A stretch of 64,000 nt of DNA from Candidatus Omnitrophota bacterium (GTDB taxonomy: Bacteria; Omnitrophota; Gorgyraeia; Ghiorseimicrobiales; Ghiorseimicrobiaceae): assembly GCA_030681595.1 (NCBI GenBank), contig JAUXSB010000014.1:23942-87941 (forward strand), written 5' to 3'. Made by a program: the position numbers and the translations under genes. The notes beneath the pieces were generated by a model. The model saw only the letters and a list, made by a program, of their open reading frames with translations. It searched no databases and was not told the origin of the DNA. Shown here in pieces: positions 41,206-63,250 of the stretch. The first letter of the stretch is position 1; every line of letters starts with the position of its first letter.

Positions 41206-41314
41206 ATTAAATAATCTATTCTTTATGAAATACTACGCCATCCGCCACTAAAGATTCGGCGGATGCCCGCCAACGCATCAGTGGCGGGCAAACTGAGCTA
41301 CTCCCCGATTAAAA
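41187..41314. repeat. 26-bp direct repeat (caaact[a/g]agctact[t/c]cccgattaaa) duplicating the tRNA 5' end, flanking a GC-rich palindromic insert
   Basis: Copies at about 41187..41212 and 41289..41314; insert contains gccatccgcc...ggcggatgc and cccgccaac...tggcggg hairpins. Confidence 0.55.
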
Positions 41315-41357
41315 CAGTATACCAAAAAATTGCCATTCCGCCAAATTAAACTATGGA

Positions 41358-42668
41358 TTAAACTACGGATTCCTTGTTTGAATAAAGGCTGTCCAGCGGG
41401 CTTTTTGGGGCATTACTCATATTCCGCAGGACATGCGTATAAATCATCGTTGTTTCAACATTATTATGGCCCAAAAGCTCCTGCACTTCCCTGATGTTCA
41501 CCCCATTCATCAAAAGATGAGTAGCAAAACTGTGCCGCAAAGTATGAACAGAAACGCGTTTAACAATACCTGCCGCGTCTGCCGCTTTTTTAACTGCCTG
41601 CTGGATAGATTTATCGCTTATATGGTGGCGGCGCGCCTTGCCGCTTCTTGGGTCAACGGAAAGGTTAGGCGAAGGAAAAACATATTGCCAACGCCAATCT
41701 TTCGCGGCATTAGGATATTTGCGCGAAAGCGCGTCCGGTAAATATACCTCGCCATAGCCGGCTTTTAGGTCTTTTTCACGCAACTCTTTAACCCTCTCAA
41801 GATGAAGGCATAAATCATTTTTAATTTTATCAGGAAGCATAGTAGTCCTGTCTTTATCCTGTTTAGCCGCGCGGATAAATATTGTATTTGAGCTAAAATC
41901 AATATCCTGAACCCGCAAGCGCGCAAGCTCCATCAACCGAAGGCCTGAACCATAAAGTAACTGCATAATAAGCCGCCCTTTGCCTTCTATGTGCCTGAAT
42001 AATGCTTCAACTTCCCCTATTGTCAAAACCGTAGGCACTTTTGACCCGCGTTTTGCCCTGACCGCCTTATCCAAATCCTTGAGTTCAACCTCAAGCACCT
42101 CACGGAATAAAAATAAAAGCGCGTTAAACGCCTGATTCTGCGTGGAAGACGAAACCCGCCTTTGGATAGCCAAATAACTTAAGAAATTTCTCACGTCTTC
42201 TGAACCTAGCCTACCATCTTGGGCGCCCTTTTTCTTTACCTCTTCAATATAAGCGTAAAAACGCTTTGCCCAATCAGTGTATGAACGTTCTGTCTTGTAA
42301 GAATAATGCCTAAGCCGTATTGCCTCCCGCATTTTATTTATAATTTCTGAAATCGGCAGGGAAACTTTTTGAGGATTCAATAAATTTTCCTGGCGGGCAT
42401 CCGCGTTTTTTGACAAAAATTGCCCGGAATATAACTTTAGCGCTTCCTCTGCCTGTTTTATCTGCCAATCAGCAAACTCGCCCTGCGCCGCGAGACATAT
42501 CAAAAATTTCCTGATAAGCAAATCCCGGCTCTCTTCTCCGCTATTATTCGCAAAACCAAGGAATTTGCTTACCCAGCGCGCATAATATGAAACGCTCTTT
42601 TCAGGCACAAGTTTACGAGAAGTCAAAAACTCCTGAAATTCTGGCAAAACGTCACTAAGCATCTGCAA
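41358..42668 (-). CDS. intI: Integron integrase (IntI-type tyrosine recombinase); true start possibly near 42362
   Basis: C-terminal [12 protein letters not shown]...[16 protein letters not shown] catalytic box preceded by [40 protein letters not shown], which parallels the IntI-specific extra segment of IntI1 that XerC/D lack; divergent from downstream cassettes. Confidence 0.8.
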
Positions 42669-42843
42669 AACCCTCTCTTTACCAAAATTCCCTTCTTAAA
42701 CGAACTTCGTATTTTCCGTTATTATATGGTAATTGCGAAAATTAGCAAGATGATTTTGATTTTTTTATTGTTTACCCCTAGAAAATATGCTATATTTAAC
42801 TGAACAATAAAAAATTACGAACTTCGTCTATTAATTGTTAGGC
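42669..42843. promoter_or_regulatory. Candidate attI region with core site GTTAGGC (42837..42843) and two copies of the palindrome acgaacttcgt
   Basis: Canonical GTTRRRY core between intI start and first cassette ORF; the 11-bp palindrome occurs at about 42703 and 42817. Confidence 0.4.
42768..42796 (+). promoter_or_regulatory. Candidate cassette promoter (TTGTTT, 17-bp spacer, TATATT)
   Basis: Hexamer match by eye in AT-rich DNA; weak evidence. Confidence 0.2.
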
Positions 42844-42899
42844 GAAATAAAATTAATAGACATCAAAACTAGAAACCCATGTGAGTTTAAGTTAATCTT

Positions 42900-43505
42900 A
42901 TGTATAAAAAATTATTAATCATTTCTATTGGTATCTGTGCAATAGTTAGTAGTTTGTTTGGTTTAGTAAAATTAATGGAAAAAACCAGTGAAAGTTATTA
43001 TCTTAAAATTCCTTATTCATCATATTGTGCAGAATTTCAATCTGGCGGAATTAATTGTGATATGATAGGCGGCAATCTTATATTCGAAAGCGATTCGGAA
43101 AGACCCCTCATTTATTTTAAAAGAGAATTAACAAATAACTCTTTTGAAATTGATCTAAAAAATAAAATAATTCAGCAGATGCAGCATGCTTTTAATAACG
43201 ATTCGGCTCCAGCTTACTCCCCTTGCAACCCCGATCGAAAATATTGTGCTGCCTATAAAACAAAAGGTATTCTGAAAAAAGGAGGCGGAATCGGATTTTG
43301 GGTATCGCCTGATAAATTGTTTGGGTTAGAAATTTTCGAAATAAAAAGTATGCAAACAAAAAAGACATTCTTTCGAAAAATGAATCTGAAGTTCGGTGGT
43401 GCTTCCCCCACACTAAAATATGATACCTTCTGGAGTGAGGATGGTAAATATGTAGTTATCTTTGATAATTCAAATAATCTAATAATTCAAAGAATAAAAG
43501 AATAA
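42900..43505 (+). CDS. Integron cassette ORF: secreted or membrane-anchored protein of unknown function with four cysteines
   Basis: N-terminal hydrophobic signal or anchor (LLIISIGICAIVSSLFGLV); no recognisable family. Confidence 0.5.
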   Translation: MYKKLLIISIGICAIVSSLFGLVKLMEKTSESYYLKIPYSSYCAEFQSGGINCDMIGGNLIFESDSERPLIYFKRELTNNSFEIDLKNKIIQQMQHAFNNDSAPAYSPCNPDRKYCAAYKTKGILKKGGGIGFWVSPDKLFGLEIFEIKSMQTKKTFFRKMNLKFGGASPTLKYDTFWSEDGKYVVIFDNSNNLIIQRIKE

Positions 43506-43580
43506 ATGTTTCTTAATTTTAGAGAGTAGGAACAAACACCTATTATTCAAAGTCAAGATTTAAGATAAAATAATAAAGTC

Positions 43581-43655
43581 GTCTAACAACGCACTGCACC
43601 TGACCTTTCCCGCCGCTAAAGCGGCGCTCAAGGCAGGTGAGTTTGAATGTTATAT
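43581..43655 (+). other. attC-like recombination site 1
   Basis: Starts GTCTAAC (fits RYYYAAC), internal palindromes (cacctgacc...ggcaggtg; cgccgct aaa gcggcg), ends GTTATAT. Confidence 0.4.
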
Positions 43656-44159
43656 AACAAAATGGATAATTTAGACTATGATGCACAGCAGAGGAGAGAA
43701 GTATTTGCCATGTATGGTTTAGCCATGTATCATGCCCAATGTTTTGAAAAAAGCTTGGTTATATTGGTATCCGTTGCATTCAACAAAGAATATTTCAAGA
43801 GTAATTACGAAAAAAGAGAGGAACTTTTTTCTGATACTTTCAAAAAAACAGCCGGACAACTAGTAGAAAAACTTAAAGTGATGGTAAAAGTCCCGAATAC
43901 CCTGGAAAATGACTTATCCAAAGCGGTAAAAAAAAGAAATTGGTTGGCACATGATTATTTTTGGGGAAATTCTTATGATATTTTGACAACAGCCGGAAGA
44001 GAGAGAAAACTAAATGAACTGCATGAAATTTCAGAATATTTTTCAAAGATGGATGAAAGAATGACAAAAATATATCAACGTGTATTCGATAAAATTGGAT
44101 TGACTGAAGATAAAGTTATGGCATATTTAGAGAAAATGGTAGATAAACACAAAATATAA
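43647..44159 (+). CDS. Integron cassette ORF: possible HEPN-motif protein (R-x4-H); true start may be the second ATG at 43662
   Basis: RNWLAH fits the HEPN Rx4-6H motif; otherwise unrecognised; the first five codons overlap the attC right end. Confidence 0.45.
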   Translation: MLYNKMDNLDYDAQQRREVFAMYGLAMYHAQCFEKSLVILVSVAFNKEYFKSNYEKREELFSDTFKKTAGQLVEKLKVMVKVPNTLENDLSKAVKKRNWLAHDYFWGNSYDILTTAGRERKLNELHEISEYFSKMDERMTKIYQRVFDKIGLTEDKVMAYLEKMVDKHKI

Positions 44160-44215
44160 CAAATCAATCCAGCGGAATTTGCCTCTGGCAAATCCGCTGA
44201 TTTCTGGTGTTATGC
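44154..44215 (+). other. attC-like recombination site 2
   Basis: ataacaaatcaatccagcggaatttgcc / ggcaaatccgctgatttctggtgttatgc imperfect inverted repeat, ATAAC...GTTAT cores. Confidence 0.45.
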
Positions 44216-44222
44216 TAAAAAA

Positions 44223-45146
44223 ATGGAAGAAAAGCAAATGTTGTTATCATGGCTCATAATCTCTATTCTGATTACATCCTATTCTACCATTCGGAATGTC
44301 GAATTCGTGGAAGCGAATACTGAATCCATGAGAAGTGATAATTCAGACATTTTCTACGAAAAAAGAGGAAACGGGAAACAAAAGATGCTTTTAATTCACG
44401 GATACGGAGCAACGAGAATGAGCTTTTATGATATAGCCCCGTTTCTAGAAAATCAGTATGAACTGTATTTAATCGACTTAATTGGTTTCGGAGATTCGCG
44501 GGCTCCATTTGGTTGGGAATACAAACCACAAAATCAAGCAGAGGCGGTATACCGATTCATAAAGAAAAATGAACTAACTGACATTACAGTTGTGGGTCAC
44601 TCATATGGCGGAATGGTGGTACTGTTACTCCTTCAAAAGATCGAAAAAGCGAAGGAATATTTTTTAATCAGGAATGCAGTTTTGATCGACCCTGCAGCTT
44701 ATCCGCAGAGGTTCCCTTTTTTTGTTCAAATTCCCAAAATACCTATTGTTAATACGATCTTTCTTTCGCTAATACCTGCAAGAAAACAAGCGCAATACAC
44801 TTTAAAGCGTCTGTTTTATGATGACAAAAAGGTCACAGATGAAAGAATCGAAAGATATGCATCCTATTACAGAAAAGGAACTCATAGAAAGGCGATAATT
44901 GAGTCTGCCAAGAATATGATTCCTAAAAATATTGATCAATTAGAAGAGGATATCAAAACAATTTCGATCCGAACGCTTATAATATGGGGTAGTAAAGATC
45001 CTGTCATACCAAAGTCAAACATAGATAGACTCCATAAAGAGCTGAAAAATTCAAATCTTATGGTGATTGAAGACGCAGGCCATATACCCCATGAAGAAAA
45101 GCCAGAGGAAACATATAATGCATTTATTGAGTTTATTCGAGATTAG
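44223..45146 (+). CDS. Integron cassette ORF: alpha/beta-fold hydrolase with N-terminal TM anchor
   Basis: HGYG oxyanion region, GHSYGG nucleophile elbow, downstream Asp and His (DAGHIPH). Confidence 0.75.
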   Translation: MEEKQMLLSWLIISILITSYSTIRNVEFVEANTESMRSDNSDIFYEKRGNGKQKMLLIHGYGATRMSFYDIAPFLENQYELYLIDLIGFGDSRAPFGWEYKPQNQAEAVYRFIKKNELTDITVVGHSYGGMVVLLLLQKIEKAKEYFLIRNAVLIDPAAYPQRFPFFVQIPKIPIVNTIFLSLIPARKQAQYTLKRLFYDDKKVTDERIERYASYYRKGTHRKAIIESAKNMIPKNIDQLEEDIKTISIRTLIIWGSKDPVIPKSNIDRLHKELKNSNLMVIEDAGHIPHEEKPEETYNAFIEFIRD

Positions 45147-45157
45147 GTTTCATTAGT

Positions 45158-45997
45158 ATGAAATTCATTCTTGAGGTTCTTAATATATTCTGGTCCATTT
45201 GCTTAGCGATTATTGCAATAGTTGTATCGTTTCTTATCCCTAAGTCTAAAAAAAGAAAAGAAGTAGGAGTAGGACTCTCAATTTTTTCTTTTACGATTAA
45301 TTTTAGAAAAGATACCTATATAAGGGGGCTTCTGGTTCTTCTAGGAATTTCCTTTCTAGGATTTACATTTGTACGTGATTACTCTTCTTTTTTTCCAAAA
45401 CGGGTGTCATTTGAGATTTATTATGACTCAAATGGGTTGAAACAGGCCATAGAAAGTATAAGGCCGTTATTGGAAGATGGCATGAAGATTTCTCCAGATT
45501 GGGAAAACAAAAGGAGGGCATATTTCCAAGAACTTGATAAAATTATTAAGTCAAAAATACCGCAGTATGAACTATTCTTTTCATATGATCATGTTGAAGA
45601 TTATTTAGTGAGCAAAGGTAAAGCAGAACATGTTGTTGAGTTGTTTAGATTTTGGCAGCAATATAAGATCACCAAGGTCAATGGCTTGGTTCAACATCGG
45701 CTTCACCCGCCTGATATGAATCCGATTGAACTCGAAACCAGGTATAATCTTTTAGATAGACCGAAAAACTTAGTTTTACCCACTATAAGAGATTTCTTCA
45801 GGGGCAGAAAACTTGTTGCACCAACAATGGCACAATCTCTCATAATTCACACAGATAAGGTTTATGAGGCCGAAATTGTAGGACTTACGGAGGTCAGGTT
45901 TTTTCCGTATAATACTTTGGAAAAGACGATATTTTGCTTTAAATCGGAAGCGGGATTAGTTCCTTTTTCGTATACATTTTATAAAGAAGAAGAATAA
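45158..45997 (+). CDS. Integron cassette ORF: 2-TM membrane protein of unknown function (same cassette as the hydrolase)
   Basis: Two N-terminal hydrophobic helices; only 11 bp after the hydrolase stop with no intervening attC. Confidence 0.5.
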   Translation: MKFILEVLNIFWSICLAIIAIVVSFLIPKSKKRKEVGVGLSIFSFTINFRKDTYIRGLLVLLGISFLGFTFVRDYSSFFPKRVSFEIYYDSNGLKQAIESIRPLLEDGMKISPDWENKRRAYFQELDKIIKSKIPQYELFFSYDHVEDYLVSKGKAEHVVELFRFWQQYKITKVNGLVQHRLHPPDMNPIELETRYNLLDRPKNLVLPTIRDFFRGRKLVAPTMAQSLIIHTDKVYEAEIVGLTEVRFFPYNTLEKTIFCFKSEAGLVPFSYTFYKEEE

Positions 45998-46002
45998 AAA
46001 AA

Positions 46003-50670: not shown

Positions 50671-50898
50671 TTATAGCGCTTCGACTTGCTTTATCTCAGG
50701 GATTTCTTTTTTAAGCATCTTTTCTACGCCGTTTTTAAGCGTCATCTGACTCATCGGGCAACAACCGCAGGTGCCGGTAAGCTTTAAGCGTACGACATTA
50801 TCTTGTGTTACCTCAACCAACTGCACGTCTCCGCCATCCGCGGCAAGCATAGGACGGACCTTATCCAACGCTTTTTCTACCTTTGCTTTATCAATCAT
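50671..50898 (-). CDS. nfuA: NifU-like (Nfu) Fe-S cluster carrier domain protein
   Basis: LTGTCGCCPMS CxxC-type motif in a 75-aa protein. Confidence 0.8.
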   Translation of the reverse strand: MIDKAKVEKALDKVRPMLAADGGDVQLVEVTQDNVVRLKLTGTCGCCPMSQMTLKNGVEKMLKKEIPEIKQVEAL

Positions 50899-51527
50899 TT
50901 TGCCCTCCCGGTTATTTTAGATAGTAACCTATTATGCTTTAAACAAAACTTTCCGCTTTTCACTTGCGAATATATCAAATCTTCCTGCCAGTGGGCATTG
51001 TATAAGCGGCAACTTTTGGATTTACAGAATGGCTCGCCGCGCAAATAAAAGAACATCGCCTGCGCCGCTAATCCCTTTACCACTTCCAAAAGGCGCTTAT
51101 CGTTATAATCAATGAAACGGCCTTTTAATTTTTGCTTAAGCCTTGCCTCTTCCGGCTCCCAAAGTCCGCTGCCGGATAAACTCTGCTTTGCCAGATAATA
51201 TTCTCTCGGTTTTGCCGGCGCCTCAACTATGCCTGAAAGCGAAATTACCGAAGGATAACTAAAAACAGATGACCTTAGATGCATCTGCCTACCTTTGCCA
51301 TCGCCTGTGGCAAAAAGGCGCTTTGTAACAATTATAGCATACGCACCGGGCGTATCCCTAATTTTTTTCTGTGTTCCGATGACATCCAACAAGAGGCCGT
51401 TTGTTACAACTATATCTTTTGCTTTCTTAACAACTACGCTAACCTCAAATGTTTTTTCTAAGAAAGCCTTTATTTTTTTAAAATCCAGGGAACTATTTTC
51501 GTCATACAAATAAACTTTATTAATCAC
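50895..51527 (-). CDS. Hypothetical protein with C-terminal cysteine cluster
   Basis: 210 aa; CKSKSC ... CLKH cysteines; no family recognised; translationally coupled in the Thi4 operon. Confidence 0.4.
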   Translation of the reverse strand: MINKVYLYDENSSLDFKKIKAFLEKTFEVSVVVKKAKDIVVTNGLLLDVIGTQKKIRDTPGAYAIIVTKRLFATGDGKGRQMHLRSSVFSYPSVISLSGIVEAPAKPREYYLAKQSLSGSGLWEPEEARLKQKLKGRFIDYNDKRLLEVVKGLAAQAMFFYLRGEPFCKSKSCRLYNAHWQEDLIYSQVKSGKFCLKHNRLLSKITGRAK

Positions 51528-52445: not shown

Positions 52446-52685
52446 TTACTCAATAATATCTCCTATTACCGGTTCAACCACTACTCCGGCTTTTTCCAAA
52501 AATTTAATTCCTTTCTGCAGGTTTTCCTCTTTACCGTCTAATTCCAAGACTATCTCGCCGATTTTATCGGTTACCCGCGCTCTTCTAATATTCGGCATCA
52601 CGTCAAATTTCTTCGCCATCTGAAAAGTCAAAGGCTGTTTTATGGTTTCGCCGGTAAAAGTAAGTTTTACGATTTTTTTAGCCAT
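52446..52685 (-). CDS. Stand-alone NIL-domain protein
   Basis: VKLTFTGETIKQPL...FDVMPNIRRARV...GEIVLELDG...VVVEPVIG parallels the NIL domain at the C-terminus of MetN. Confidence 0.7.
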   Translation of the reverse strand: MAKKIVKLTFTGETIKQPLTFQMAKKFDVMPNIRRARVTDKIGEIVLELDGKEENLQKGIKFLEKAGVVVEPVIGDIIE

Positions 52686-52934
52686 TATTTATCCTTTCAA
52701 TGAGCGCATAACTTACGAATACACAGTATGAGTAAGTTATTTGCGCGAATTGATGCCGAAAGCTACGGGAAAATTTAGTATAAATTTTCGCAGTGTTTTG
52801 CTTTCGGCGCAATGCATAACTTACGAATACACAGTATGAGTAAGTTATTTGCGCGAATTAATCCCGATAGCTACAAGAAAATTTAGTATAAATTTTCGCA
52901 GTGTTTTGCTATCGGGGCCAATTAAATATTCCTG
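52686..52934 (-). promoter_or_regulatory. Two tandem copies of a two-hairpin leader module immediately upstream of the NIL gene start
   Basis: Each copy: hairpin ataacttac-N15-gtaagttat, then GC-clamped stem (gccgaaagc/gctttcggc in copy 1, cccgatagc/gctatcggg in copy 2) enclosing AT palindrome gaaaatttagtataaattttc; ends in the Shine-Dalgarno context of the gene. Confidence 0.55.
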
Positions 52935-53750
52935 TTATTCCATCTCTTCTTTTATCTGACAAGCCTGCTGTTCATAATCTACTAACTTAGTAATCGTAGG
53001 GTGATCCGAGCAAACCGCGCAGTCATTATCTTTGGGCACCTTGACTGTGCGAAAAGTTGAGGTAAGCGCGTCAAAGATAAGCAGCCTCCCTGTTAATAAT
53101 TCCCCGATACCCAAGATAAATTTTAAAACCTCATTTGCCTGCAATACCCCCAGGATACCGGCTACCGCGCCCAATATACCCCCTTCCTGGCAAGAAGGCA
53201 CTGCTCCCGGAGGGGGCGGTTCAGGGAAAAGGCAACGATAACACGGCCCGGCCTTCGGTAATATAGTCATAATCTGGCCGTCAAACCTGAAAATTCCCGC
53301 ATGCACAAGCGGCTTTTTAGTCATCACGCAGGCATCGTTTACCAAAAAACGGGTAGGAAAATTATCGGTTCCGTCTACGACTATATCATAATTTTTAAGT
53401 AAAGCTAAAATATTTTCTGAATTTATCCTAAGGTTATAAGCATCAACTTTTACATCCGGGTTAAGCTCGGAAAGCCGCCTTCTGCCTGATTCTGCCTTAG
53501 GCATCCCCACACTAGGAGTGCTATGAATAATCTGGCGTTGCAAATTATTCACTTCAACTTTATCGGAATCCACCAAACCAATCCTACCTACGCCAGCCGC
53601 CGCCAAATAAAGGGCGCTTGGAGCGCCTAAACCGCCTGTGCCGATAATCAGCACTTTAGCATTTAAGAGTTTCTCCTGCCCCTTTCCGCCCACTTGCGGA
53701 AGGATAATCTGGCGTGAGTAGCGCTCAATCTGTAAATCATTTAAACTCAT
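52935..53750 (-). CDS. ThiF/MoeB-family E1-like adenylyltransferase
   Basis: GTGGLGAP nucleotide-binding motif, zinc-binding CYRC and CAVC pairs; no rhodanese domain. Confidence 0.85.
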   Translation of the reverse strand: MSLNDLQIERYSRQIILPQVGGKGQEKLLNAKVLIIGTGGLGAPSALYLAAAGVGRIGLVDSDKVEVNNLQRQIIHSTPSVGMPKAESGRRRLSELNPDVKVDAYNLRINSENILALLKNYDIVVDGTDNFPTRFLVNDACVMTKKPLVHAGIFRFDGQIMTILPKAGPCYRCLFPEPPPPGAVPSCQEGGILGAVAGILGVLQANEVLKFILGIGELLTGRLLIFDALTSTFRTVKVPKDNDCAVCSDHPTITKLVDYEQQACQIKEEME

Positions 53751-54031
53751 TATTCTGAACCTCCGGCTATAGCAGGGATAATTGATACTTCATCATTATT
53801 TTTCAATTCTGTGTCATATCCTTTTAAAAAACGGATATCTTCGTTGTTGACATAAAAGTTAATGAAACGGCGGATTTTACCGTTTTCGTCGCAAATCCTT
53901 GCTTTTACCCCGGGGAAACGTTTTTCCAGATCATCCACCAGTTCATTAATATTACCTGCTTCAACTTCTACCTCTACCTTATTCTGCGTCAATTTCTGCA
54001 GGGGTGCCGGGATTCTCACTTTTATAGACAT
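53750..54031 (-). CDS. ThiS/MoaD-like sulfur-carrier protein with 2-residue extension beyond Gly-Gly (..IAGGSE)
   Basis: 93-aa protein ending AGG-SE; stop overlaps the ThiF/MoeB start. Confidence 0.65.
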   Translation of the reverse strand: MSIKVRIPAPLQKLTQNKVEVEVEAGNINELVDDLEKRFPGVKARICDENGKIRRFINFYVNNEDIRFLKGYDTELKNNDEVSIIPAIAGGSE

Positions 54032-54268
54032 ATTTTTATCCTTTCAATGAGCGCATAACTTACGAATACACAGTATGAGTAAGTTATTTGCGCGAATTGA
54101 TGCCGAAAGCTACGAGAAAATTTACAATAAATTTTCGAGCGTTTTGCTTTCGGCGCAATGCATAACTTACGAATACACAGTATGAGTAAGTTATTTGCGC
54201 GAATTGATGCCAAAGCCTACGCAATCCCGAAATTTCAGGACAAGCGTTTAGGCAAGGGGCGCTACCAT
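54032..54268 (-). promoter_or_regulatory. Leader module (one full copy plus a partial second copy) immediately upstream of the sulfur-carrier gene
   Basis: Same ataacttac/gtaagttat hairpin and gccgaaagc/gctttcggc stem around palindrome gaaaatttacaataaattttc. Confidence 0.55.
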
Positions 54269-55522
54269 TTAAATTGAATAATGATCGGCCGTCGGACGCT
54301 TCTTTTGTTCTTCTTCAAAAGAACCTAAACTCGGCTTTATTTTTAACGGCTTTGCCAACTTATCGGCCACCACTTCCTGCGTTTTTAAACCGTTTCCGGT
54401 AATACATATTACGATTGACTCATCCTTTGGGATACGCTTCTCTTTTATAAACTTTATCGTTGCCGCAACCGTAACTCCTCCGGCAGTCTCAGTAAATATG
54501 CCTTCGGTCTCAGCCAATAATTTAATCGCATTAATAATTTCGTCATCGCTTGCCGCCTCTGCCCAGCCGCCGGACTTTTTCACTACATCATAGGCATAAA
54601 AACCGTCAGCAGGATTTCCTATGGCTAAAGACTTGGCGATTGTTTTTGGCTTAACCGGCTTAATGATTTCATTATCTTCTTTTATCGCGGTAACTATAGG
54701 AGCGCAGCCCTCGCCTTGCGCCACATAAAGTTTTGTTTTAAATTCAGGAATTAAGCCTAATTGATAAAATTCCTGCAGCGATTTTTTAATTTTGGTAACC
54801 AGAGAACCTCCTGCCGCAGGCACAATTATATGCTTAGGCGCGCGCCATCCTAATTGCTCGGCAATCTCAAAACCGTAGGTCTTTGAACCTTCGGCATAAT
54901 ATGGGCGTATGTTGATATTTACAAATGCCCACTTATATTTAGCGGCAATCTCGGAACACAGGCGGTTTACTTCGTCATAATTCCCTTCAACCTTTACTAG
55001 CACCGGATTATAAATTGATGAGGCGATAATTTTGCCTTGCTCTAAATCCGCCGGGATAAAAATAAAAGCGCGCAGCCCCGCGATAGCGGCATTTGCCGCA
55101 ACAGAATTAGCCAAATTTCCTGTTGAGGCACAGGCAACCGTGCGGAAACCGAATTCTTTAGCCTTTGAAAGAGCAACCGCCACAACCCGGTCTTTAAAAG
55201 AAAGGGTGGGATGATTTACCGAATCATCTTTTATGTAAAGCTCTTTTACGCCTAAAACTTTAGCTAAATTATGCGACCGGACGAGCGGAGTAAATCCGGT
55301 TGTTAAGCCATCACTCGGCTCTTTAGAAAGCGGCAATAACTCCTTATACCTCCACATATTCTTGGGGCGTTTCTCTATTTCCTGGCGCGTAAGCACCTTT
55401 TTAATCTTATCGTAATCATAAGCTACTTCTATTGAACCAAAACAATACTCGCAGACAAATAATATATTTGCCGGGTATTCCCGCCCGCATTCGCGGCATT
55501 TTAGGCCTTTTACGTAAGACAT
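54269..55522 (-). CDS. Threonine synthase-family PLP enzyme with N-terminal zinc ribbon (function in this context uncertain)
   Basis: CRECG...CEYC ribbon; PLP-lysine motif PTLSFKDR; 417 aa. Confidence 0.75.
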   Translation of the reverse strand: MSYVKGLKCRECGREYPANILFVCEYCFGSIEVAYDYDKIKKVLTRQEIEKRPKNMWRYKELLPLSKEPSDGLTTGFTPLVRSHNLAKVLGVKELYIKDDSVNHPTLSFKDRVVAVALSKAKEFGFRTVACASTGNLANSVAANAAIAGLRAFIFIPADLEQGKIIASSIYNPVLVKVEGNYDEVNRLCSEIAAKYKWAFVNINIRPYYAEGSKTYGFEIAEQLGWRAPKHIIVPAAGGSLVTKIKKSLQEFYQLGLIPEFKTKLYVAQGEGCAPIVTAIKEDNEIIKPVKPKTIAKSLAIGNPADGFYAYDVVKKSGGWAEAASDDEIINAIKLLAETEGIFTETAGGVTVAATIKFIKEKRIPKDESIVICITGNGLKTQEVVADKLAKPLKIKPSLGSFEEEQKKRPTADHYSI

Positions 55523-55526
55523 ATCC

Positions 55527-57869
55527 TTACCCTTTCTTAATCAGAATCCTGTAAAACTTACCTTCTTGTTTTACGCTTAATACCTGGTGGCCGTCATTCT
55601 TTAGGCTCTCAGGCACATTCCTTATCGGCTCCCCTTCGTCAAGAATTACCTCTAATATATCACCGGTATCTAAATCTTCCAAGGCCAGCTTCGCCTTGAT
55701 ATAATTTATCGGACAAGGGGTGCCTTTTAAATCCATAATTCGCTTTGGCGCCTCATTATTTTTTAAAGAAGGTTTTGATTCACCTGCGCAATTAGGGAAA
55801 CTAAACGATGGATCCATGCTTTTATATAGCTCATTTATATGAGCAGTAAACTTCCCGGCATAAAGGAATTTCTCTTTTTTCTGTTCCGCATTAAGCTTAT
55901 CATTTATAGCCTTAAAAACATTTTCTATATCGGCATATTCGTCTGAAGCGATTTTTGCATCAACAAATTTTTTCTTAAACTCCGATACCGCATCCTCCGG
56001 ATTATATGGATCTACGCCCTTGACTATTAAAAGGGCGCGGGAGGCGCTAAAAAATGCCTTCTTTATTTTTTCAATATCATAAGATTTTTTTTCTGCCTCC
56101 TCTATCGCAATCTTAGCATCGGCTAAATCCGCCTCAATCATATCAATAACCCCGGCGCCACATTCGCCTGTACCCAGGCCGGATAAAGAAAAATCATCTT
56201 CTCTGCCCCAGTCAACATAAAAATTACGGCCTTCTAAATAAGACGGCATATAGGCATGCCTGGCCAAAAGTTCCTTGGCAATGACTACCGCCTCAGCCTC
56301 CAGGAATTCATAAATATCAATGCTTTCCCGGAATTTTTCTTCCACCTTATTTAAGAATTCTTCTAAAAAAAGCGGGGCATTTTTTGCCGCAATCATACCC
56401 GCCTCTTTGGCCAAAGCCGTCTTCTCCGCTTCCCTTCTGCCGCCCAAAAGTACTTTGTAAAATGGCACCGGGCGGTTATCTACTCTCTTTGCCGCGCCAA
56501 CAAAAGAAATCTTGCCTATGGGATGCTGACCGCAGGAATTAGGGCAACCGTTTAATTTTATATCCAGCCTCTTAAATACCTCTTTACCGATAAAGCGTGC
56601 CTTAATCATTTCTTCTATCTTGCGGGAAAGCGCCGGTGAATTACATAAACCCAGGTTACAGGTTGTCGCTCCCTTACAGACAGTTACGTCCAGAAGCGTA
56701 TCGGGATATAAAAAATCCTGTAAAATATTTTTTATTTTTAGAAAAATATCAAAGAGGCAGCTATTCTCAACCCAAGCGATAGCAATATCCTGGCTCTGCA
56801 GGGCGCGGAATTCGATATCCTTAAAATCGCCTTCTAAGCCGGCAAGTGCTGCCAGTTCTTCTGCTTTAATATCGCCCTGCGGGATACGCAGTAGAATACA
56901 GGAGTACCCTTTTTGGCGCTGAGGCCTTATATTATACCTCAAAAAATCCCTGTATTGCTTATCTTCTTTTACGGGGATTTCTGAATTTATCTCTTGCATG
57001 GAAAACGCCTGTATATCTTTTAACGCGATATGCTCTGCGTCTTTAACCGCCTTAAACTCGCTTAAATATAATTTTTTAAATTCATCTAGCCCCATTTTTT
57101 CAACCAGAAACCGCAAGCGGTTGTGATGCCGGTCTTTTCTGTCGCCGTTTTTGTAAAAAACATTTTTTAAAGCAGTTACGCAATAACCTAATTCGCTCTC
57201 GGGGATGAATTCTTCCAAAAGCTTCCCTATCCGCGAGCTTGCCCCCAAGCCTCCGCCGACAAAAATTTTAAAACCTTTTTTCCCGCCACGGATATCAGCA
57301 AGTAAGCCGACGTCATTTATCAATATGCCGCTGCAATCTTTAACGCATCCTGAAAACGTAATTTTAAACTTGCGCGGCAGCATAAAAGAACTTTCCTGCC
57401 GTAAAAAATATTCGGTCAGGGCAATGGCATTGGCCCTTACATCAAATACCTCATCTTTACATATTCCGCTAAATGGGCAAGCAGTAATATTCCTCAAAGT
57501 ATTTCCTCCTCCGCCGCGCGGCGAAAGGCCGTAGTCTTGCAGGTAATCAATAACTTTAAACGTATCTTCTAATTTTATATTGTGTATCTGAATATCCTGC
57601 CGTGTCGTTATGTGCAAGCGCCCGTCGCCGTATTTTTTAGCCGCCTCTGCTAATGCCTTTAACTGCGCGGTATTAACTGCGCCGGCAGGGATTCGTATCC
57701 GGCTCATAAATGCTTTTCCCCCGCGGTGCGAATATACACCCCATGGCACACGCACGCCCTTAAAACGCGCATCAGGAATTTTATCTGCTAAAAATTCCTC
57801 CAGGGAACGCCGGTAATTTTCCGCATCCTTTTTTACTTCTTCCGGTAAATTAAATAAATTATAATTCAA
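55527..57869 (-). CDS. Siroheme/[4Fe-4S] sulfite (or nitrite) reductase fused to a C-terminal TusA-like domain
   Basis: Two reductase half-domains with CxxxxC and NGCPNSC cysteine motifs; C-terminal about 70 aa ([35 protein letters not shown]...) has the TusA/SirA-like two-layered fold signature. Confidence 0.75.
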
Positions 57870-58788
57870 AGTACTGCTCCATACTGAAATAGCGCTCGCC
57901 CGTATCGGGAAATACCGTAACTACTTTTTTCCCTTTGCCTAATGCGCCTGCCACTTTTAATGCCGCCCAACAGGCAGCGCCGCTGGATATACCCACAAAC
58001 AACGACTCTTCCTTACATAATCTTTTAGAGGTAAAGAAAGCATCATTATCGCTGACTTGAATGATTTCGTCAATAATTTCCCTGTTTAAGACTTTGGGGA
58101 TAAACCCTGCGCCTATGCCTTGTATCTTATGCGGGCCGGGCTTTCCACCGGATAAAACCGGCGAATTTACCGGCTCAACCGCTACAATCTTAACCCGCGG
58201 ATTTTTCTCTTTTAGTACCTCGCCTACGCCTGTGATTGTGCCGCCAGTACCAACGCCGGAAACAAAGGCATCTATCTTTCCGCCTGCCTCTTCTAAAATT
58301 TCAAGCGCGGTCGTACGGCGGTGCACCTCGGGGTTTGCCGGATTATTAAACTGCTGAGGCATAAAGGCACCGGGAGTATTACACACTAACTCTTCGGCAT
58401 ACCTTACTGCCCCGCTCATTCCTTCGATTCCGGGAGTCAAAACTATCTCCGCACCGTAGGATTTTAAAATATGCCTCCTCTCTAAACTCATTGTTTCAGG
58501 CATGGTTAAAATTACCTTATACCCCTTAACCGCTCCGATCATACTTAAGCCGATACCGGTATTTCCACTGGTAGGCTCAATAATAACCGACCCGGGCTTA
58601 AGCAAGCCTTTCTTTTCGGCATCTTCAACCATGGCAAGGCAAATCCTGTCTTTGACCGAGCCGCCGGGATTGGCAGATTCAAGTTTTGCAAAAATTTCTG
58701 CCGAATTAACCTCCGGCATCTTTCTTAATTTTACTAAAGGGGTATTTCCGATTAACTGCGCAACACTTTCTACAGTTATTCTAGGCAT
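57859..58788 (-). CDS. cysM: Cysteine synthase (CysM/CysK family, PLP-dependent)
   Basis: SVKDR PLP-lysine motif, GTGGT motif; probable start MPRITVES, 4 nt after the carrier stop. Confidence 0.85.
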
Positions 58789-58792
58789 AGCC

Positions 58793-59026
58793 TCACCTCT
58801 TAAAATAAAAATTCCGGCGGATTGAGCCACCACCCATAAAATAGACAAACTCTAACCTGTCGCCTTCTTTTATTGCCACTGAGCCGTAATCTTTTCTTTC
58901 TATGATATTGTCGTTTAATTCTATTGTCACTACTTCCGGACGGATGTTTTTACGTTTTAATAACTCCGCAATACTTATATTTTTATCCAGCACCTCTTTT
59001 TTGCCGTTAATGGTAATATCTGCCAT
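58793..59026 (-). CDS. ThiS/MoaD/CysO-like sulfur-carrier protein with about 10-residue extension after Gly-Gly (..[15 protein letters not shown])
   Basis: 77-aa beta-grasp-sized protein; lies between JAMM and CysM as in the mec-cysO-cysM arrangement. Confidence 0.6.
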
Positions 59027-59038
59027 GTTTTTCTCCCT

Positions 59039-59482
59039 TTAATTCCTGATACTTACCTCGGTTACATTATTTTCTGCGATTCTAAACGCGCGGATTTGCG
59101 GGTTAAATTTATCCGCCAGAGATACTATAACATAAAAACTTTCCGGATAAAATGCTAATTCCAGATCCTTTGCCGAAGGATATGCCGGGCTTTCCGTATG
59201 CGAATGATAAATCGCCACCAAATCCAATTCTTGCGCCCGGAGTTCCTTAAAAATCTTTAGCTGCTCCTTGGGATCTATAAGGTAGCAGAATTCCGGCTTA
59301 TCTGAAATATTTACTAAAGGATAAACCGAGGCTGCCTTAGCGGCCTTGCCTGCCAAAATCCCGCAGGCCTCTTTGGGGTAATTTTTTTGGCAGTCAGCAA
59401 TTATCTTATCCTGAATATCTTTTGCGATAAAAATCTTCTCTATTTTATTATTCATATGCCGTGCTGGCTCCTTCGCCAACAA
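59039..59482 (-). CDS. JAMM/MPN+ metalloprotease (Mec-like)
   Basis: E...HSHTESPAYPSAKD matches the JAMM zinc motif (HxH-x7-S-xx-D). Confidence 0.8.
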   Translation of the reverse strand: MLAKEPARHMNNKIEKIFIAKDIQDKIIADCQKNYPKEACGILAGKAAKAASVYPLVNISDKPEFCYLIDPKEQLKIFKELRAQELDLVAIYHSHTESPAYPSAKDLELAFYPESFYVIVSLADKFNPQIRAFRIAENNVTEVSIRN

Positions 59483-59551: not shown

Positions 59552-60487
59552 TTACGCCTCAAAATACTGTTGCACTGAAAAATACCTCTCTCCCGTATCC
59601 GGAAATATTGTTAATACGGTTTTATTCTTGCCTAATTCATTAGCGATAGAGAGTGCTGCAAATCCTGCCGCCCCCGCGGATATGCCGACAAACAAACCTT
59701 CTCTTTTAGCCAATTGTTTGGCGGTATTAAAGGCATCGCTATCAGAAACCGGGATTATCTTATCAATAATTTTGGTATTAAGGATATCCGGCACAAACCC
59801 CACGCCGATACCCTGTATCTTATGCGGGCCTGCCTTATGCCCCGATAATACAGCGCAGGTTTTAGGCTCAACCGCAACTATTTTAATCTCCGGATTATAC
59901 TTTTTCAAAATTTCGCCTACCCCGGTAATAGTTCCTCCGGTACCAACACCAGCAACAAAGGCATCTAAATTACCGCGGGTAACTTTCAATATTTCTTCCG
60001 CGGTTGTCTTGCGGTGTATTTCTGGATTAGCGGAATTTTTAAATTGTTGCGGCATAAAGCTATTATCGGTTTTCCTCAATAACTCTTCTGCCTTATCAAT
60101 CGCCCCCTGCATCCCCTTAAAATTAGGCGTCAATACTACCTCAGCGTCATATGACTTAAGGATATAGACTCTTTCTAAGCTCATCGCCTCCGGCATAACA
60201 ATGATACAACGATAGCCTCTTACCGCGCAAATCATCGCTAGGCCTATTCCGGTATTACCGCTGGTTGGCTCAATAATAGTATGGCCGGGCTTAAGCAGGC
60301 CTTTCTTTTCGGCATCCTCAATCATCGAAAGGCAAACCCTGTCCTTTACGCTCCCGCCGGGATTAAACATCTCTAACTTTGCCAAAACTAAAGCCGAATC
60401 TTTTCCTGTGATATGGTTTAACTTTACTACAGGCGTATTATAGATTAATTCCGTAATATCGTTGGCAACTCTATCTGAAAACGGCAT
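59552..60487 (-). CDS. cysK: Cysteine synthase (CysK/CysM family), second copy
   Basis: SVKDR and GTGGT motifs; clearly homologous to 57859..58788. Confidence 0.85.
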   Translation of the reverse strand: MPFSDRVANDITELIYNTPVVKLNHITGKDSALVLAKLEMFNPGGSVKDRVCLSMIEDAEKKGLLKPGHTIIEPTSGNTGIGLAMICAVRGYRCIIVMPEAMSLERVYILKSYDAEVVLTPNFKGMQGAIDKAEELLRKTDNSFMPQQFKNSANPEIHRKTTAEEILKVTRGNLDAFVAGVGTGGTITGVGEILKKYNPEIKIVAVEPKTCAVLSGHKAGPHKIQGIGVGFVPDILNTKIIDKIIPVSDSDAFNTAKQLAKREGLFVGISAGAAGFAALSIANELGKNKTVLTIFPDTGERYFSVQQYFEA

Positions 60488-60503: not shown

Positions 60504-61472
60504 CTATCGTTTAAATACTAATAATAAAAAATAAGAAAGTAAAACTGACAATAAAGGCGTAATCGCCCAAACAAAAAATGTCTTTTTGGTTATGTGGCTA
60601 CCTAATGTGTGGCGATGGCCATTTTTTAAACAACTAATCGCGAAAATCGCGGCAAGGTTTAACTGCACCAGCGACTGAGGAATTCCTAAAAAAGAAGCAA
60701 AAATAAGCAGGGTTGCCGTAACAAAAGAAACCAAGGTGCTTGAGACCAATCCCAACGGCACAATCTCTTTACCTGCGGTTTCAAGCGGCCCCTTTCCTAA
60801 AATACCGGCACCCACACCAAATAAAGGCGAAATCAAAAACAACCCCAAGTTTACGCTTATAAGCCCCGCGCCAAATAACGGCCCAACCGCGTTCGCCACA
60901 TTATTTGAACCAATAGCAAAAGCAACATAACAACTTGCCACTAAACTAGCTAACCTTATCTTTTTTTCATTAGAAAATATCTTCTGATAAATATGCAAGT
61001 TATCATGCTCAGGCGGATAAATATTCCTATATAATAAAAAAGTTAAGATATAAGAAGCTAGGGGCAAAATAACCCACATCGGTAGTATCTTTACAGACAA
61101 AGTAGCAAGATTAAGATGTTTAAAATATAGCCCCGCGCCGACAATAGCGCCTACTGTAACCTGGCTCGTGGACTGAGGAATCTTTAAAATATTAGCCAGA
61201 AAAAGGCTTAAAGCCGCAGAAATAAGAACTATTAAAGCTACATCAAAACTTATAAATTCGCTGGGTATTAAATTCTTGCCTAAAGTCAGAGAAACATTCC
61301 TGCCCAACAGAGAAGCGCCCAAAATAACAAAAATCCCAAATAAAATCAGGGCCTTATTTTTTCTTATTAATTTTCCGCCGTAAGCCGCCGCAAAAGAGGG
61401 TGCGATACCGCTGCCTCCCATATTTACGGCAAAAAATATTACAACTAGGATTAAAATAAGAGTTCCAGCCAA
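60504..61472 (-). CDS. PiT-family inorganic anion permease (candidate sulfate permease)
   Basis: Multi-TM protein with duplicated G(S/A)N(N/D)VANA-type motifs (NMGGSGIAPSFAAA; AIGSNNVANAVGPL). Confidence 0.7.
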   Translation of the reverse strand: MAGTLILILVVIFFAVNMGGSGIAPSFAAAYGGKLIRKNKALILFGIFVILGASLLGRNVSLTLGKNLIPSEFISFDVALIVLISAALSLFLANILKIPQSTSQVTVGAIVGAGLYFKHLNLATLSVKILPMWVILPLASYILTFLLYRNIYPPEHDNLHIYQKIFSNEKKIRLASLVASCYVAFAIGSNNVANAVGPLFGAGLISVNLGLFLISPLFGVGAGILGKGPLETAGKEIVPLGLVSSTLVSFVTATLLIFASFLGIPQSLVQLNLAAIFAISCLKNGHRHTLGSHITKKTFFVWAITPLLSVLLSYFLLLVFKR

Positions 61473-61487
61473 TTTATTCTCTCCTGG

Positions 61488-62213
61488 TTAAATTCCCGCG
61501 CCCTGGGTGTTTGTCTTAAGCGGCCGGGTGTGTATGCCGCATTCGCCACCGCATTTTGAAGTGCCTATCCAGCGGCCGGAACGCTCGTTTTCATCGCTTG
61601 AAATATGTGTGCATGGTGCGCATCCCAATGAACGGTATCCCGCCGCGTAAAGCGGGTTAACAAGGACTTGATATAAAGCCAAGTACTGCCAAACTTCGCG
61701 CTCTTTCCAGATTAATATAGGATTAAGCTTAACTAACCCCTTATCCCTTTCCTCCACTTCCTTATAGTCAGTGCGGGTCCTGCCTTCGGTGCAGCGTAGC
61801 CCCGTTACCCAACATGTTACATGCATTTCTTCTACAGCACGCTTTACCGGCTCAACCTTAAGTATATCGCAGCATTTATCCGGATCGGTTTTATAAAGGT
61901 CATTTGAAATTTGGGCATGGCTTTCATAAACTTTTAATTCCGGATAACGGGCCACGGCTTCATGCATAAACTTTTTGGTCTCCGCCGGCTTAAATCTGGT
62001 AGTAACAATAAACCCCTTTATCTTCGGGTTTACCTTTTTGGCTAAATCCCAGACTGCTACCGAATCCTTACCTAAACTGTTTGCTACGACTAAACCATCC
62101 TTATACTTTTTATAAGCCTCTTCGATAAGCGCAAGCGACCTATCTACTTTCTCTTTAAAGTTTAGCTTCTCCACCAATTCCTTTAAATCATCCTTGTTGT
62201 TTAATAAACTCAT
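61488..62213 (-). CDS. cysH: APS/PAPS reductase-family protein (with CC...CxxC cysteine signature)
   Basis: PP-loop-like SLGKDS, C-terminal ECGIH motif, Cys pairs (KCC, CAPC); probable start MSLLNNK, since the ORF-track N-terminus runs through the leader repeat. Confidence 0.8.
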   Translation of the reverse strand: MSLLNNKDDLKELVEKLNFKEKVDRSLALIEEAYKKYKDGLVVANSLGKDSVAVWDLAKKVNPKIKGFIVTTRFKPAETKKFMHEAVARYPELKVYESHAQISNDLYKTDPDKCCDILKVEPVKRAVEEMHVTCWVTGLRCTEGRTRTDYKEVEERDKGLVKLNPILIWKEREVWQYLALYQVLVNPLYAAGYRSLGCAPCTHISSDENERSGRWIGTSKCGGECGIHTRPLKTNTQGAGI

Positions 62214-62370
62214 TTTACTTTTCCTTTCAATGAGCGCATAACTTACGAATACAGAGTATGAGTAAGTTATTTGCGCGAATTGATGCCGAAAGCTACGAGA
62301 AAATTTACAATAAATTTTCGAGCGTTTTGCTTTCGGCGCAATGCATAATCCCGAAGCTTCGGGATTACAG
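62214..62370 (-). promoter_or_regulatory. Leader module upstream of cysH, followed by the atcccgaagcttcgggat palindrome
   Basis: Same two-hairpin architecture and Shine-Dalgarno context as at 52686 and 54032. Confidence 0.55.
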
Positions 62371-62452
62371 AGGTACGCAAAACTAATGGAATTTCGTATG
62401 CGAAGAGGTTCCATTGGCTTTACGTTTCTCAATAGTATAGGCGAACACGCAT

Positions 62453-62893
62453 TTAAACTGCGTACACCAACCTTTGTTTAGCTGATTTCACCTTGCTGAC
62501 CAAATCTTCGAAAGTCACATTATCCACTATTTCTGTGGCACTTTCTGCCACATCCCTCCAGATCTTCCTGAAGACACATCTATATAAATCCTTGCAATTA
62601 GAATATCCGCTTCCAACACAAGCGATAGGCTCGATTGGGCCGTCAATATACCTAACCACCTCTCCTAGTTTTATGCGTGAAGGGTGCTTAGCTAACAGGT
62701 ATCCGCCAATTTTCCCGCGCCGGCTTTCCACAAAACCGCCTTTTTTTAACTCTAATAGTATCTGCTCTAAAAACTTAACCGGTATATCTAACCTTTTAGC
62801 CAAATCATGAATAGCAATAACGCCGTTACCGTAATGTATAGACAGATCCAATATTGTTTTTAAGGCGTAATCGCCTTTATAAGTGATTTTCAT
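62453..62893 (-). CDS. Rrf2-family transcriptional regulator (CymR/IscR-like)
   Basis: N-terminal wHTH typical of Rrf2 (YALKTILDLS...); heads the sulfur cluster. Confidence 0.85.
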   Translation of the reverse strand: MKITYKGDYALKTILDLSIHYGNGVIAIHDLAKRLDIPVKFLEQILLELKKGGFVESRRGKIGGYLLAKHPSRIKLGEVVRYIDGPIEPIACVGSGYSNCKDLYRCVFRKIWRDVAESATEIVDNVTFEDLVSKVKSAKQRLVYAV

Positions 62894-62952: not shown

Positions 62953-63250
62953 GCGAAAAATGCAAACTTGCCGCGCCCGACCCGCCTGACTTCATTCGGG
63001 CAGGCTGAATGTCGTTCGGGCGGGCGCTTATTTTTCGCGCGATGCCCCGCCACAAAGCCCGCCACTAAAACATCAGCGGGTTCGCCTAAGATTTGTGGCG
63101 AACGTTGGCGGGCAGGCGCAAATACTTTAAATGAAACCATAAGTTATGGAAGCCTAAAGGCGACATAACTTATTTGGTTGAATTTATCCCGATACTTGCA
63201 AGAAAATTTAGAATAAATTTTCGCGGTGTTTTAGTATCGGGGCGCGGCGC
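62940..63250. repeat. Composite intergenic repeat (GC-rich palindromic units plus two-hairpin module), second copy of the 30890..31250 element
   Basis: Long stretches identical to 30900..31190; module stem cccgatact/agtatcggg around palindrome aaaatttagaataaatttt. Confidence 0.7.

Follow-up and report, generated by a model that had tools for sequence, protein, structure and literature searches.

In a 64,000-nucleotide stretch of a contig from a Candidatus Omnitrophota bacterium (the whole stretch of DNA that was analysed, referred to below as the window), an open reading frame (ORF) with an ATG start, given in the window ORF list at 54269-55522 on the minus strand, encodes a 417-amino-acid pyridoxal phosphate (PLP) enzyme of the threonine synthase (ThrC) fold. 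Judging from sequence comparison and gene context, the product is probably a MetM-type homocysteine synthase and not a threonine synthase. The MetM/MetO pathway was already described in 2024 and is included in a pathway-annotation tool; the gene is a further example of this pathway, not a new system.

Gene organization of the locus

All genes from 62.9 kb to 50.7 kb are on the minus strand. The cluster begins with genes for an Rrf2 regulator, CysH, a PiT-type sulfate permease, a CysK-like enzyme, a JAB peptidase, a ThiS-type carrier, and a second CysK-like enzyme, and continues with a sulfite reductase carrying a C-terminal TusA domain, the ThrC-like enzyme, a 93-aa carrier, an E1, a NIL protein, Thi4, DUF6775, and Nfu. 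The remainder of the window consists of housekeeping genes (dcw cluster, IleRS, LigA, and others). The genes central to the assignment are as follows.

54269..55522, minus strand: MetM-like PLP enzyme (annotated threonine synthase), with a Cys4 ribbon at residues 9-27, K110, and the clade-specific residues L137, R206, and Y209
53750..54031, minus strand: MetO/CysO-like sulfur carrier, 93 aa, ending in ..IPAIAGG plus a 2-residue extension, SE (Pfam ThiS)
52935..53750, minus strand: MoeB/ThiF-type E1 adenylyltransferase, 271 aa (Pfam ThiF, 1.1e-87)
52446..52685, minus strand: stand-alone NIL-domain protein, 79 aa (Pfam NIL)
55527..57869, minus strand: assimilatory sulfite/nitrite-reductase-type hemoprotein with a C-terminal TusA domain at about 55533-55736 (Pfam NIR_SIR, NIR_SIR_ferr, TusA)
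59039..59482, minus strand: JAMM/JAB metallopeptidase (Mec/HcyD-like), motif HSHx7SxxD read from the translation (Pfam Prok-JAB)

The ThrC-like gene starts 4 nt past the end of the sulfite reductase-TusA gene and has no leader of its own; the carrier (53750-54031) and E1 (52935-53750) genes follow on the same strand, as a preliminary description of this DNA had stated. No hom, thrB, ask, second thrC, or conventional met gene was found in the 64-kb window, and the threonine-pathway context (hom, thrB, ask) of a canonical ThrC was thus absent there. In three Omnitrophota relatives (75-89% identity), the order TusA, MetM-like, MetO, E1, NIL is kept, with a separate TusA gene directly upstream of the MetM-like gene and, in L087 and L088, a small sulfite reductase gene before that for TusA.

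Sequence features of the ThrC-like protein

The Pfam family PALP matched residues 75-376 with an E-value of 2.4e-68, and the PLP-lysine motif PTLSFKDR was located at residues 105-112 (PLP lysine, K110). S-F-K-D-R sites of the PLP-lysine type were found in the 64-kb window only in this gene and the two CysK-like genes, and PTLSFKDR was the sole ThrC-type lysine motif there. The N-terminal ribbon consists of C9, C12, C24, and C27 (CxxC-x11-CxxC), each Cys being invariant or at least 90% conserved among 24 homologues. The fold, lysine motif, and zinc ribbon named in the preliminary description were thereby confirmed.

Among the NCBIfam models, the general model TIGR00260 (thrC) gave 289.8 bits against a cutoff of 167.1 and was the sole threonine-synthase model passed. 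The best-scoring model, NF006050 ('threonine synthase'), gave 300.9 bits, just below its cutoff of 303, and the protein was below the cutoffs of all the family-specific threonine-synthase equivalogs NF004170, NF005035, NF006205, and NF004996. TIGR00260 does not separate the MetM-like clade described below from the canonical ThrC clade. The identical protein in the database is named 'MAG: threonine synthase [Candidatus Omnitrophota bacterium]', and the nearest solved structures are true threonine synthases from Aquifex (2zsj; E=2.5e-57), Bacillus (6cgq), Thermus (1uim), and Mycobacterium (2d1f), with 36-39% identity; the PDB search returned nothing closer. The cysteate synthase model TIGR03844 gave 76 bits against a cutoff of 324.9.

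Phylogenetic placement and residue signature

Homologues were searched among 1.84 billion cluster representatives, of which 12,779 representative clusters matched at E≤0.001; full-length representatives were aligned, and a neighbor-joining (NJ) tree was constructed with 100 bootstraps. The protein fell in a 46-member clade (bootstrap, 94/100) that includes Actinoplanes and Micromonosporaceae proteins; the ThrCs of Aquifex, Bacillus, Thermus, and Mycobacterium lie outside it, as do several other ThrC-like subfamilies. By the phylogenetic placement called for in the preliminary description, the protein does not group with any threonine synthase of known structure. The tree sample did not include S. 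albulus MetM, nor did it include a Nonomuraea protein that bears the clade signature and was identified independently of it.

The protein and all relatives down to approximately 40% identity share STGN(L/V) and VN-x-N-x-RPYYAEGSKT, whereas the solved ThrCs have STGNT and VN-SVNPxRxEGQKT. Because five clade members carry variant motifs, the set defined by regular expression was not strictly monophyletic (0/100). Residues were compared with five canonical-type ThrCs, namely the four solved structures and P0255, in T. thermophilus numbering, in which K61 aligns with the PLP lysine of the protein. T88L, N157R, R160Y, W249G, and a few other replacements were found in 33-41 of 41 clade members and in none of the five canonical sequences. 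T88, N157, and R160 are conserved in the solved ThrCs; the corresponding residues here are L137, R206, and Y209, and the same substitutions occur in 35-41 of the 41 clade members.

The zinc ribbon was rejected as a discriminator, and in this respect the preliminary description, which names a zinc ribbon, was not upheld: the same ribbon is present in P0255, which has the canonical signature and lies in a thrB / thrC-hom-ask cluster, and in archaeal PadR-fused ThrC-like proteins. Relatives of 490-500 aa were considered as carrier fusions and turned out to be PadR fusions. ThrC-like proteins with C-terminal PadR domains (P0188, P0221, P0256, and P0268; approximately 495 aa) and one with a LeuA allosteric domain (P0249; 620 aa) lie outside the MetM-like clade. 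An apparent ThiF-ThrC-like fusion, P0184 (L092, 4004-7068), is probably a frameshift artefact, since its ThrC-like part is split over two ORFs on a long-read contig; the gene order in L092 is CysK-like, E1, MetM-like.

Gene context in relatives

Species-representative genomes were scanned with the clade's own motifs (8-sequence alignment), which yielded 80 loci (55-70% identity) from Planctomycetota, Nitrospirota, Omnitrophota, Cyanobacteria, Verrucomicrobiota, Chloroflexota, Acidobacteriota, Thermodesulfobacteriota, Aquificaceae, and others, and these were searched with the window's own proteins. A carrier homologue was encoded just downstream of the ThrC-like gene on the same strand in 75 loci, within 250 nt in 64 of these (median gap, 115 nt), and the carriers share the C-terminus ..SI(V/I)PA(I/V)AGG; one of the five loci that lack a carrier is a contig end. 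Genes for NIL, E1, and JAB were found nearby in 36, 26, and 14-15 of the 80 loci, respectively. In the window, the closest solved relatives of the carrier were 4n6e_B (E=2.6e-20) and M. tuberculosis CysO, 3dwg_C (E=2.6e-16), and it is CysO-like, neither MoaD-like nor ThiS-like.

This linkage bears on the explanation that the enzyme is a carrier-independent O-phosphohomoserine sulfhydrylase using free sulfide, with the carrier and E1 serving, for example, the Thi4 thiazole synthase or molybdopterin. The position of the gene directly after the sulfite reductase gene, the Thi4 gene four genes downstream, and an E1 lacking rhodanese would be in keeping with it, but the carrier follows the ThrC-like gene in 75 of the 80 loci mostly where neither Thi4 (2/80) nor sulfite reductase (5/80) is encoded nearby, the carrier of the window is CysO-like, published MetM uses thiocarboxylated MetO, and Thi4 of the window's type is annotated as sulfide-dependent. 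We regard this explanation as quite improbable.

A SAM-I element was detected upstream of the ThrC-like gene on the same strand in 30 of the 80 loci by nhmmer with a hidden Markov model (HMM) built from three Rfam hits, and both positives that were re-tested (L024 and L054) were confirmed by Rfam. Rfam SAM-I riboswitches (72-83 bits) lie directly upstream in Actinoplanes derwentensis, in two metagenomic relatives, and in L024 and L054. The A. derwentensis protein (52% identical) and the two metagenomic ones (51% and 46%) are more distant clade members, with SAM-I scores of 72-77 bits, and in two of these three a ThiS-family gene is directly downstream. In an Acidobacteriota metagenome-assembled genome (L073, 3737-3810), a SAM-II (SAM_alpha) riboswitch was found 1.2 kb upstream of the MetM-like gene, which suggests that another SAM riboswitch class controls the same operon.

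The regulatory link of the relatives is to SAM and methionine, not to cysteine, and this argues against a different phospho-amino acid substrate, by which O-phosphoserine would be combined with sulfite to cysteate or with the carrier thiocarboxylate to cysteine. The ThrC fold does include cysteate synthase, an option raised in the preliminary description, and the cluster is rich in cysteine-type enzymes; however, the score for TIGR03844 was far below its cutoff, and for cysteine the cluster already has a probable branch of its own, made up of the ThiS-type carrier and the pair of CysK-like enzymes. Such a substrate is extremely unlikely.

Some relatives carry a canonical thrC in addition to the MetM-like gene, at the same locus or elsewhere in the genome. 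In the Nitrospirota loci L011 and L016, a canonical-signature thrC lies a few hundred bases downstream of MetM-MetO-NIL. On the 11.85-Mb replicon of Nonomuraea gerenzanensis, a SAM-I-like element, a MetM-like gene, and a MetO-like gene stand together at 11.81 Mb, the MetM-like protein being 51% identical to that of the window and carrying the full clade signature, and at 2.50 Mb thrB is preceded by a canonical thrC whose product has 65% identity to the M. tuberculosis enzyme, with neither a SAM element nor a carrier there.

An ordinary threonine synthase placed in a sulfur operon by chance would agree with the database name, the TIGR00260 score, and the best PDB matches. It is, however, a very improbable account in view of the separate, well-supported clade, the carrier synteny across phyla, the SAM riboswitches in relatives, the scores below cutoff for NF006050 and the other family-specific equivalogs, and the presence in a thrB/hom/ask operon of a canonical ThrC having the same zinc ribbon.

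Assignment as a probable MetM-type enzyme

The features of MetM found here are a ThrC fold with PLP lysine, grouping apart from verified ThrCs, an adjoining Gly-Gly carrier, and E1 and JAMM proteins in the cluster; the full published arrangement of SAM riboswitch, metM, and metO was observed in Nonomuraea. The clade (94/100), the carrier synteny (75/80), the SAM riboswitches (30/80 and the three more distant members), and the canonical thrC paralogues are four independent lines of comparative evidence that agree in supporting a role in sulfur metabolism rather than in threonine synthesis, as the preliminary description had proposed. Since they match the MetM/MetO pathway, the protein was assigned as probably of MetM type.

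Several points weigh against this assignment. The protein scores above the TIGR00260 cutoff, and its best solved relatives are true threonine synthases. T88 and R160 of T. thermophilus ThrC, which we take to be contacts to the substrate phosphate, were not confirmed as such by the literature search, and a functional meaning of their replacement is something that we infer from the alignment. The link to the characterised MetM is indirect, as it runs through actinomycete and cyanobacterial homologues having the published gene arrangement. Alignment of the E1 to the MoeB and MoeZ models leaves out their rhodanese parts, and because the E1 is without the rhodanese domain of MoeZ, sulfur loading would have to differ from that in the published system. 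No SAM riboswitch was detected in the window at the Rfam gathering threshold, nor at E≤1 in 52600-54300; cyanobacterial homologues of MetM are also reported to be without one (cyanobacterial study), and the riboswitch is a supporting, not a defining, feature of MetM genes. Finally, a Microcystis homologue (51.6% identical to MetM, with a metO-like neighbour) was weakly active in vitro as a threonine synthase and deaminase, and a MetM-like function in vivo was not demonstrated for it (cyanobacterial study).

The weak activity of the Microcystis homologue, the thrC HMM score above cutoff, the conservation with ThrC of the scaffolds for PLP and the substrate carboxylate, and the lack of a second thrC in the 64-kb window would also suit a bifunctional enzyme that forms homocysteine with the carrier and, as the only ThrC of the organism, provides the threonine supply of the cell (or threonine deamination). 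This is unlikely: relatives that could be checked carry a separate canonical thrC at the same locus or in the genome, the five canonical-type ThrCs all have T88 and R160, for which the clade has other residues throughout, and SAM-riboswitch control would ill suit a gene on which threonine supply depends.

The practical value of assigning the protein to the MetM type lies in annotation. All source-given names encountered for clade proteins were 'threonine synthase', and the clade is widespread (Omnitrophota, Planctomycetota, Nitrospirota, Cyanobacteria, Verrucomicrobiota, Chloroflexota, Actinomycetota, and others). As a consequence of these labels, metabolic reconstructions of uncultured phyla will miss a methionine route or infer a false methionine auxotrophy, and count threonine synthase twice. 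A simple rule to separate MetM from ThrC is STGN[LV] together with N-x-N-x-R-P-Y-Y and a downstream carrier ending in ..PAIAGG.

Proposed pathway

The following steps are all proposed from homology and context. Sulfate would enter via the CysP-like permease and be reduced by CysH and then by the sulfite reductase-TusA protein, which is the presumed source of sulfide or persulfide. The JAB peptidase, which presumably trims carrier C-termini and frees the amino acid from the carrier adduct, would strip the SE dipeptide behind the Gly-Gly of the 93-aa MetO/CysO-like carrier. The rhodanese-less E1 would adenylate the C-terminal glycine of the carrier, and sulfide or a TusA-bound persulfide would convert it to the thiocarboxylate. 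The ThrC-fold enzyme would bind O-phosphohomoserine on PLP and eliminate phosphate as in threonine synthase, and the carrier thiocarboxylate would then attack C-gamma, in place of the addition of water at C-beta. After an S-to-N acyl shift, JAB would free homocysteine and the carrier, by analogy with CysM/CysO/Mec and HcyS/MetY/HcyD, and a methylating enzyme encoded elsewhere would convert homocysteine to methionine. For cysteine, there is probably a parallel branch that uses the ThiS-type carrier with both CysK-like enzymes.

The NIL-domain protein

In the 36 of 80 loci in which NIL is linked to MetM-MetO, it is encoded right after MetO or after E1. In 8 loci from several phyla (L008, L009, L014, L015, L018, L031, L039, and L040), NIL follows in frame directly after the Gly-Gly of the carrier, and a JAB gene was present in 7 of these 8 MetO-NIL fusion loci versus 8 of the 72 others (Fisher, p=1.5e-5, for loci that are not phylogenetically independent). 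The only solved relatives of the NIL protein are C-terminal domains of MetN, which we take to be methionine-binding regulatory domains, and given this kinship NIL could be a methionine sensor that gates the maturation or activation of the carrier. As such, it could act as protein-level feedback replacing the SAM riboswitch that is absent from this lineage. Names given to the NIL family in the sources are inconsistent (ferredoxin, methionine ABC ATPase subunit, and aspartate-semialdehyde sulfurtransferase ferredoxin).

The DUF39 homocysteine pathway, which is unrelated, depends on a NIL/ferredoxin protein (PMC5764234). By analogy with the role suspected there, NIL could alternatively be a sulfur-relay partner. 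No paper linking NIL to MetM/MetO was found in the literature searched, which did not cover the original MetM/MetO paper; the matches dealt with coenzyme M synthesis or with homocysteine formation by the DUF39/NIL-ferredoxin pathway. The TusA domain beside the sulfite reductase may, in Omnitrophota, pass sulfur directly to the rhodanese-less E1. Taken together, we tentatively consider it possible that NIL is an unrecognised third MetM/MetO component, acting in methionine-sensing or pro-domain control of carrier maturation or in a sulfur relay, with a TusA-mediated hand-off in Omnitrophota. The association of NIL and the MetO-NIL fusions give a lead on the control or the sulfur supply of the pathway.

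Other genes of the cluster

The remaining genes for sulfur metabolism in the window are as follows.

57859..58788, minus strand: CysK/CysM-like PLP enzyme 1; the start is probably the ATG at 58788, with its own ribosome-binding site
58793..59026, minus strand: second carrier, ThiS-type, 77 aa, GGG plus a 10-residue extension (TIGR01683); probably the carrier of the cysteine branch
59552..60487, minus strand: CysK/CysM-like PLP enzyme 2
60504..61472, minus strand: PiT/PHO4-type sulfate permease (CysP-like)
61488..62213, minus strand: adenosine 5'-phosphosulfate/3'-phosphoadenosine 5'-phosphosulfate (APS/PAPS) reductase (CysH); likely start, M74 (MSLLNN)
62453..62893, minus strand: regulator of the Rrf2 family (CymR/IscR-like), encoded first in the cluster

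The sulfite reductase gene differs in form among the Omnitrophota loci. In the window (55527-57869) it encodes a 780-aa two-module sulfite reductase fused to TusA, in L087 (8870-9996) and L088 (8867-9990) a 296-aa small sulfite reductase is accompanied by a separate TusA of 78-79 aa, and in L086 (9834-9989) there is a 51-aa TusA remnant only and no sulfite reductase gene. The TusA Cys motif is CPIN instead of CPxP. The ThiS-type carrier is joined via GGG to the CysK-like enzyme in L086 (8661-9794), L087 (7718-8857), and L088 (7697-8854), giving proteins of 377-386 aa; in the window (58788-59026) the two are separate ORFs in different frames. Near the end of the cluster, Thi4 and Nfu flank the DUF6775/DUF7001 gene (50895-51527), which encodes a probable metallopeptidase, and this placement is conserved (L086, 14245-14874).

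The trio of E1, JAB, and ubiquitin-like protein was also considered as an anti-phage ubiquitin-like system and rejected, as the matches to a cap2-type model were weak (48.6 and 18.3 bits; cutoff, 320) and the context is one of sulfur metabolism throughout.

Leader cassettes and other features of the window

A structured leader cassette of approximately 108 nt recurs in the cluster.

54022-54236, minus strand: two tandem copies of the cassette between the MetM-like and MetO-like genes
52675-52926, 62205-62348, and 63166-63243, minus strand: other copies, in minus-strand leaders

The cassette precedes MetO and NIL, in each case as a tandem pair, and also cysH, and there is a partial copy upstream of the Rrf2 gene. 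The cassette ends in a ribosome-binding site and carries two long palindromes, the first being GCCGAAAGC..GAAAATTTA-N3-TAAATTTTC..GCTTTCGGC and the second ATAACTTAC-N15-GTAAGTTAT, which occurs 5 times in the 64 kb, in cassettes only (0.04 expected). Folding of the cassette region was far stronger than that of shuffled sequence (z=-7.6), and in a relative with 89% identity the cassettes recur, with changes that affect both arms symmetrically; cassettes are also found in L086 at 11300-11500 and 12690-12840. No Rfam family was found for the intergenic cassettes at the gathering threshold in the window or at E≤1 in 52600-54300. The cassette may serve as an operator for Rrf2 or, at the RNA level, as a leader or processing element, or it may be a repeat element.

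The mechanical cysH ORF (61488-62432; 314 aa) reads through the upstream cassette; the likely start, M74 at 62213, gives 241 aa, and the relatives have 239-240 aa. Read-through of the cassette is also the cause of a spurious 63-aa ORF at 54022-54213.

Elsewhere in the window, in the region 41131-46000, an integron-type integrase gene (41358-42668, minus strand; TIGR02249, 426 bits; cutoff, 265) adjoins a tRNA gene (41131-41205), and beyond it there is a low-GC (35%) stretch of cassette-like look with plus-strand ORFs. A c-di-GMP-I riboswitch (67 bits), one stem of which has a 55-nt insertion, was found at 2050-2188 on the minus strand.

Comparison with known systems

In Streptomyces albulus, MetM/MetO is reported to convert O-phosphohomoserine to homocysteine with thiocarboxylated MetO and the helpers Mec and MoeZ (Hasebe 2024, Appl Environ Microbiol 90:e01247-24). 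A SAM riboswitch lies upstream of S. albulus metM according to the cyanobacterial study, and MetM 'is often misannotated' as threonine synthase (GapMind 2026). The system of the window resembles that of S. albulus in having a ThrC-homologous PLP enzyme, annotated as threonine synthase, whose gene adjoins that for a Gly-Gly carrier, together with an E1 and a JAMM protein. Unlike in S. albulus, the gene is part of a sulfate-assimilation operon headed by an Rrf2 regulator and has no SAM riboswitch, the E1 lacks the rhodanese domain of MoeZ and a sulfite reductase-TusA fusion is encoded directly upstream of the ThrC-like gene, NIL belongs to the conserved module, the carrier has a 2-residue extension, and the host belongs to Omnitrophota, not to Actinomycetota.

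The CysM/CysO/Mec/MoeZ cysteine pathway of M. tuberculosis, reportedly described by Burns et al. in 2005 (structures 3dwg/3dwm), is said to use a protein thiocarboxylate as the sulfide donor. As in that pathway, the thiocarboxylate would supply sulfur to a PLP enzyme of fold type II whose substrate is a phospho-amino acid, and JAMM and E1 proteins and a CysO-like carrier are present; unlike CysM, which belongs to the CysK/CysM family and converts O-phosphoserine to cysteine, the enzyme of the window belongs to the ThrC family and has a regulatory link to methionine. The HcyS/HcyD/HcyF/MetY homocysteine pathway of Wolinella succinogenes, said to have been reported by Krishnamoorthy and Begley in 2011, is likewise comparable in its sulfite reductase, its extended carrier trimmed by JAMM, its rhodanese-less E1, and its homocysteine-forming PLP enzyme; unlike MetY, which is of fold type I and uses O-acetylhomoserine, the present enzyme is a ThrC homologue and would use O-phosphohomoserine.

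Canonical ThrC (TIGR00260; 2zsj, 6cgq, 1uim, and 2d1f) shares the fold, the PLP-lysine motif, and probably the substrate. It differs in carrying STGNT and VNSVNPxR, whereas the clade of the window protein has STGNL and VNxNxRPYY, in forming a separate clade, and in its context of hom and thrB without a carrier gene or a SAM riboswitch. B. subtilis ThrC is 33% identical to MetM, and it is about as distant from the window protein as from MetM.

The DUF39 pathway of methanogens and Desulfovibrio is similar in that a NIL protein is genetically tied to homocysteine formation (PMC5764234). In that pathway, NIL is fused to ferredoxin and acts with DUF39 on aspartate semialdehyde (PMC5764234), whereas the NIL protein of the window is a bare 79-aa domain (or, in relatives, a carrier extension) beside a ThrC-fold enzyme.

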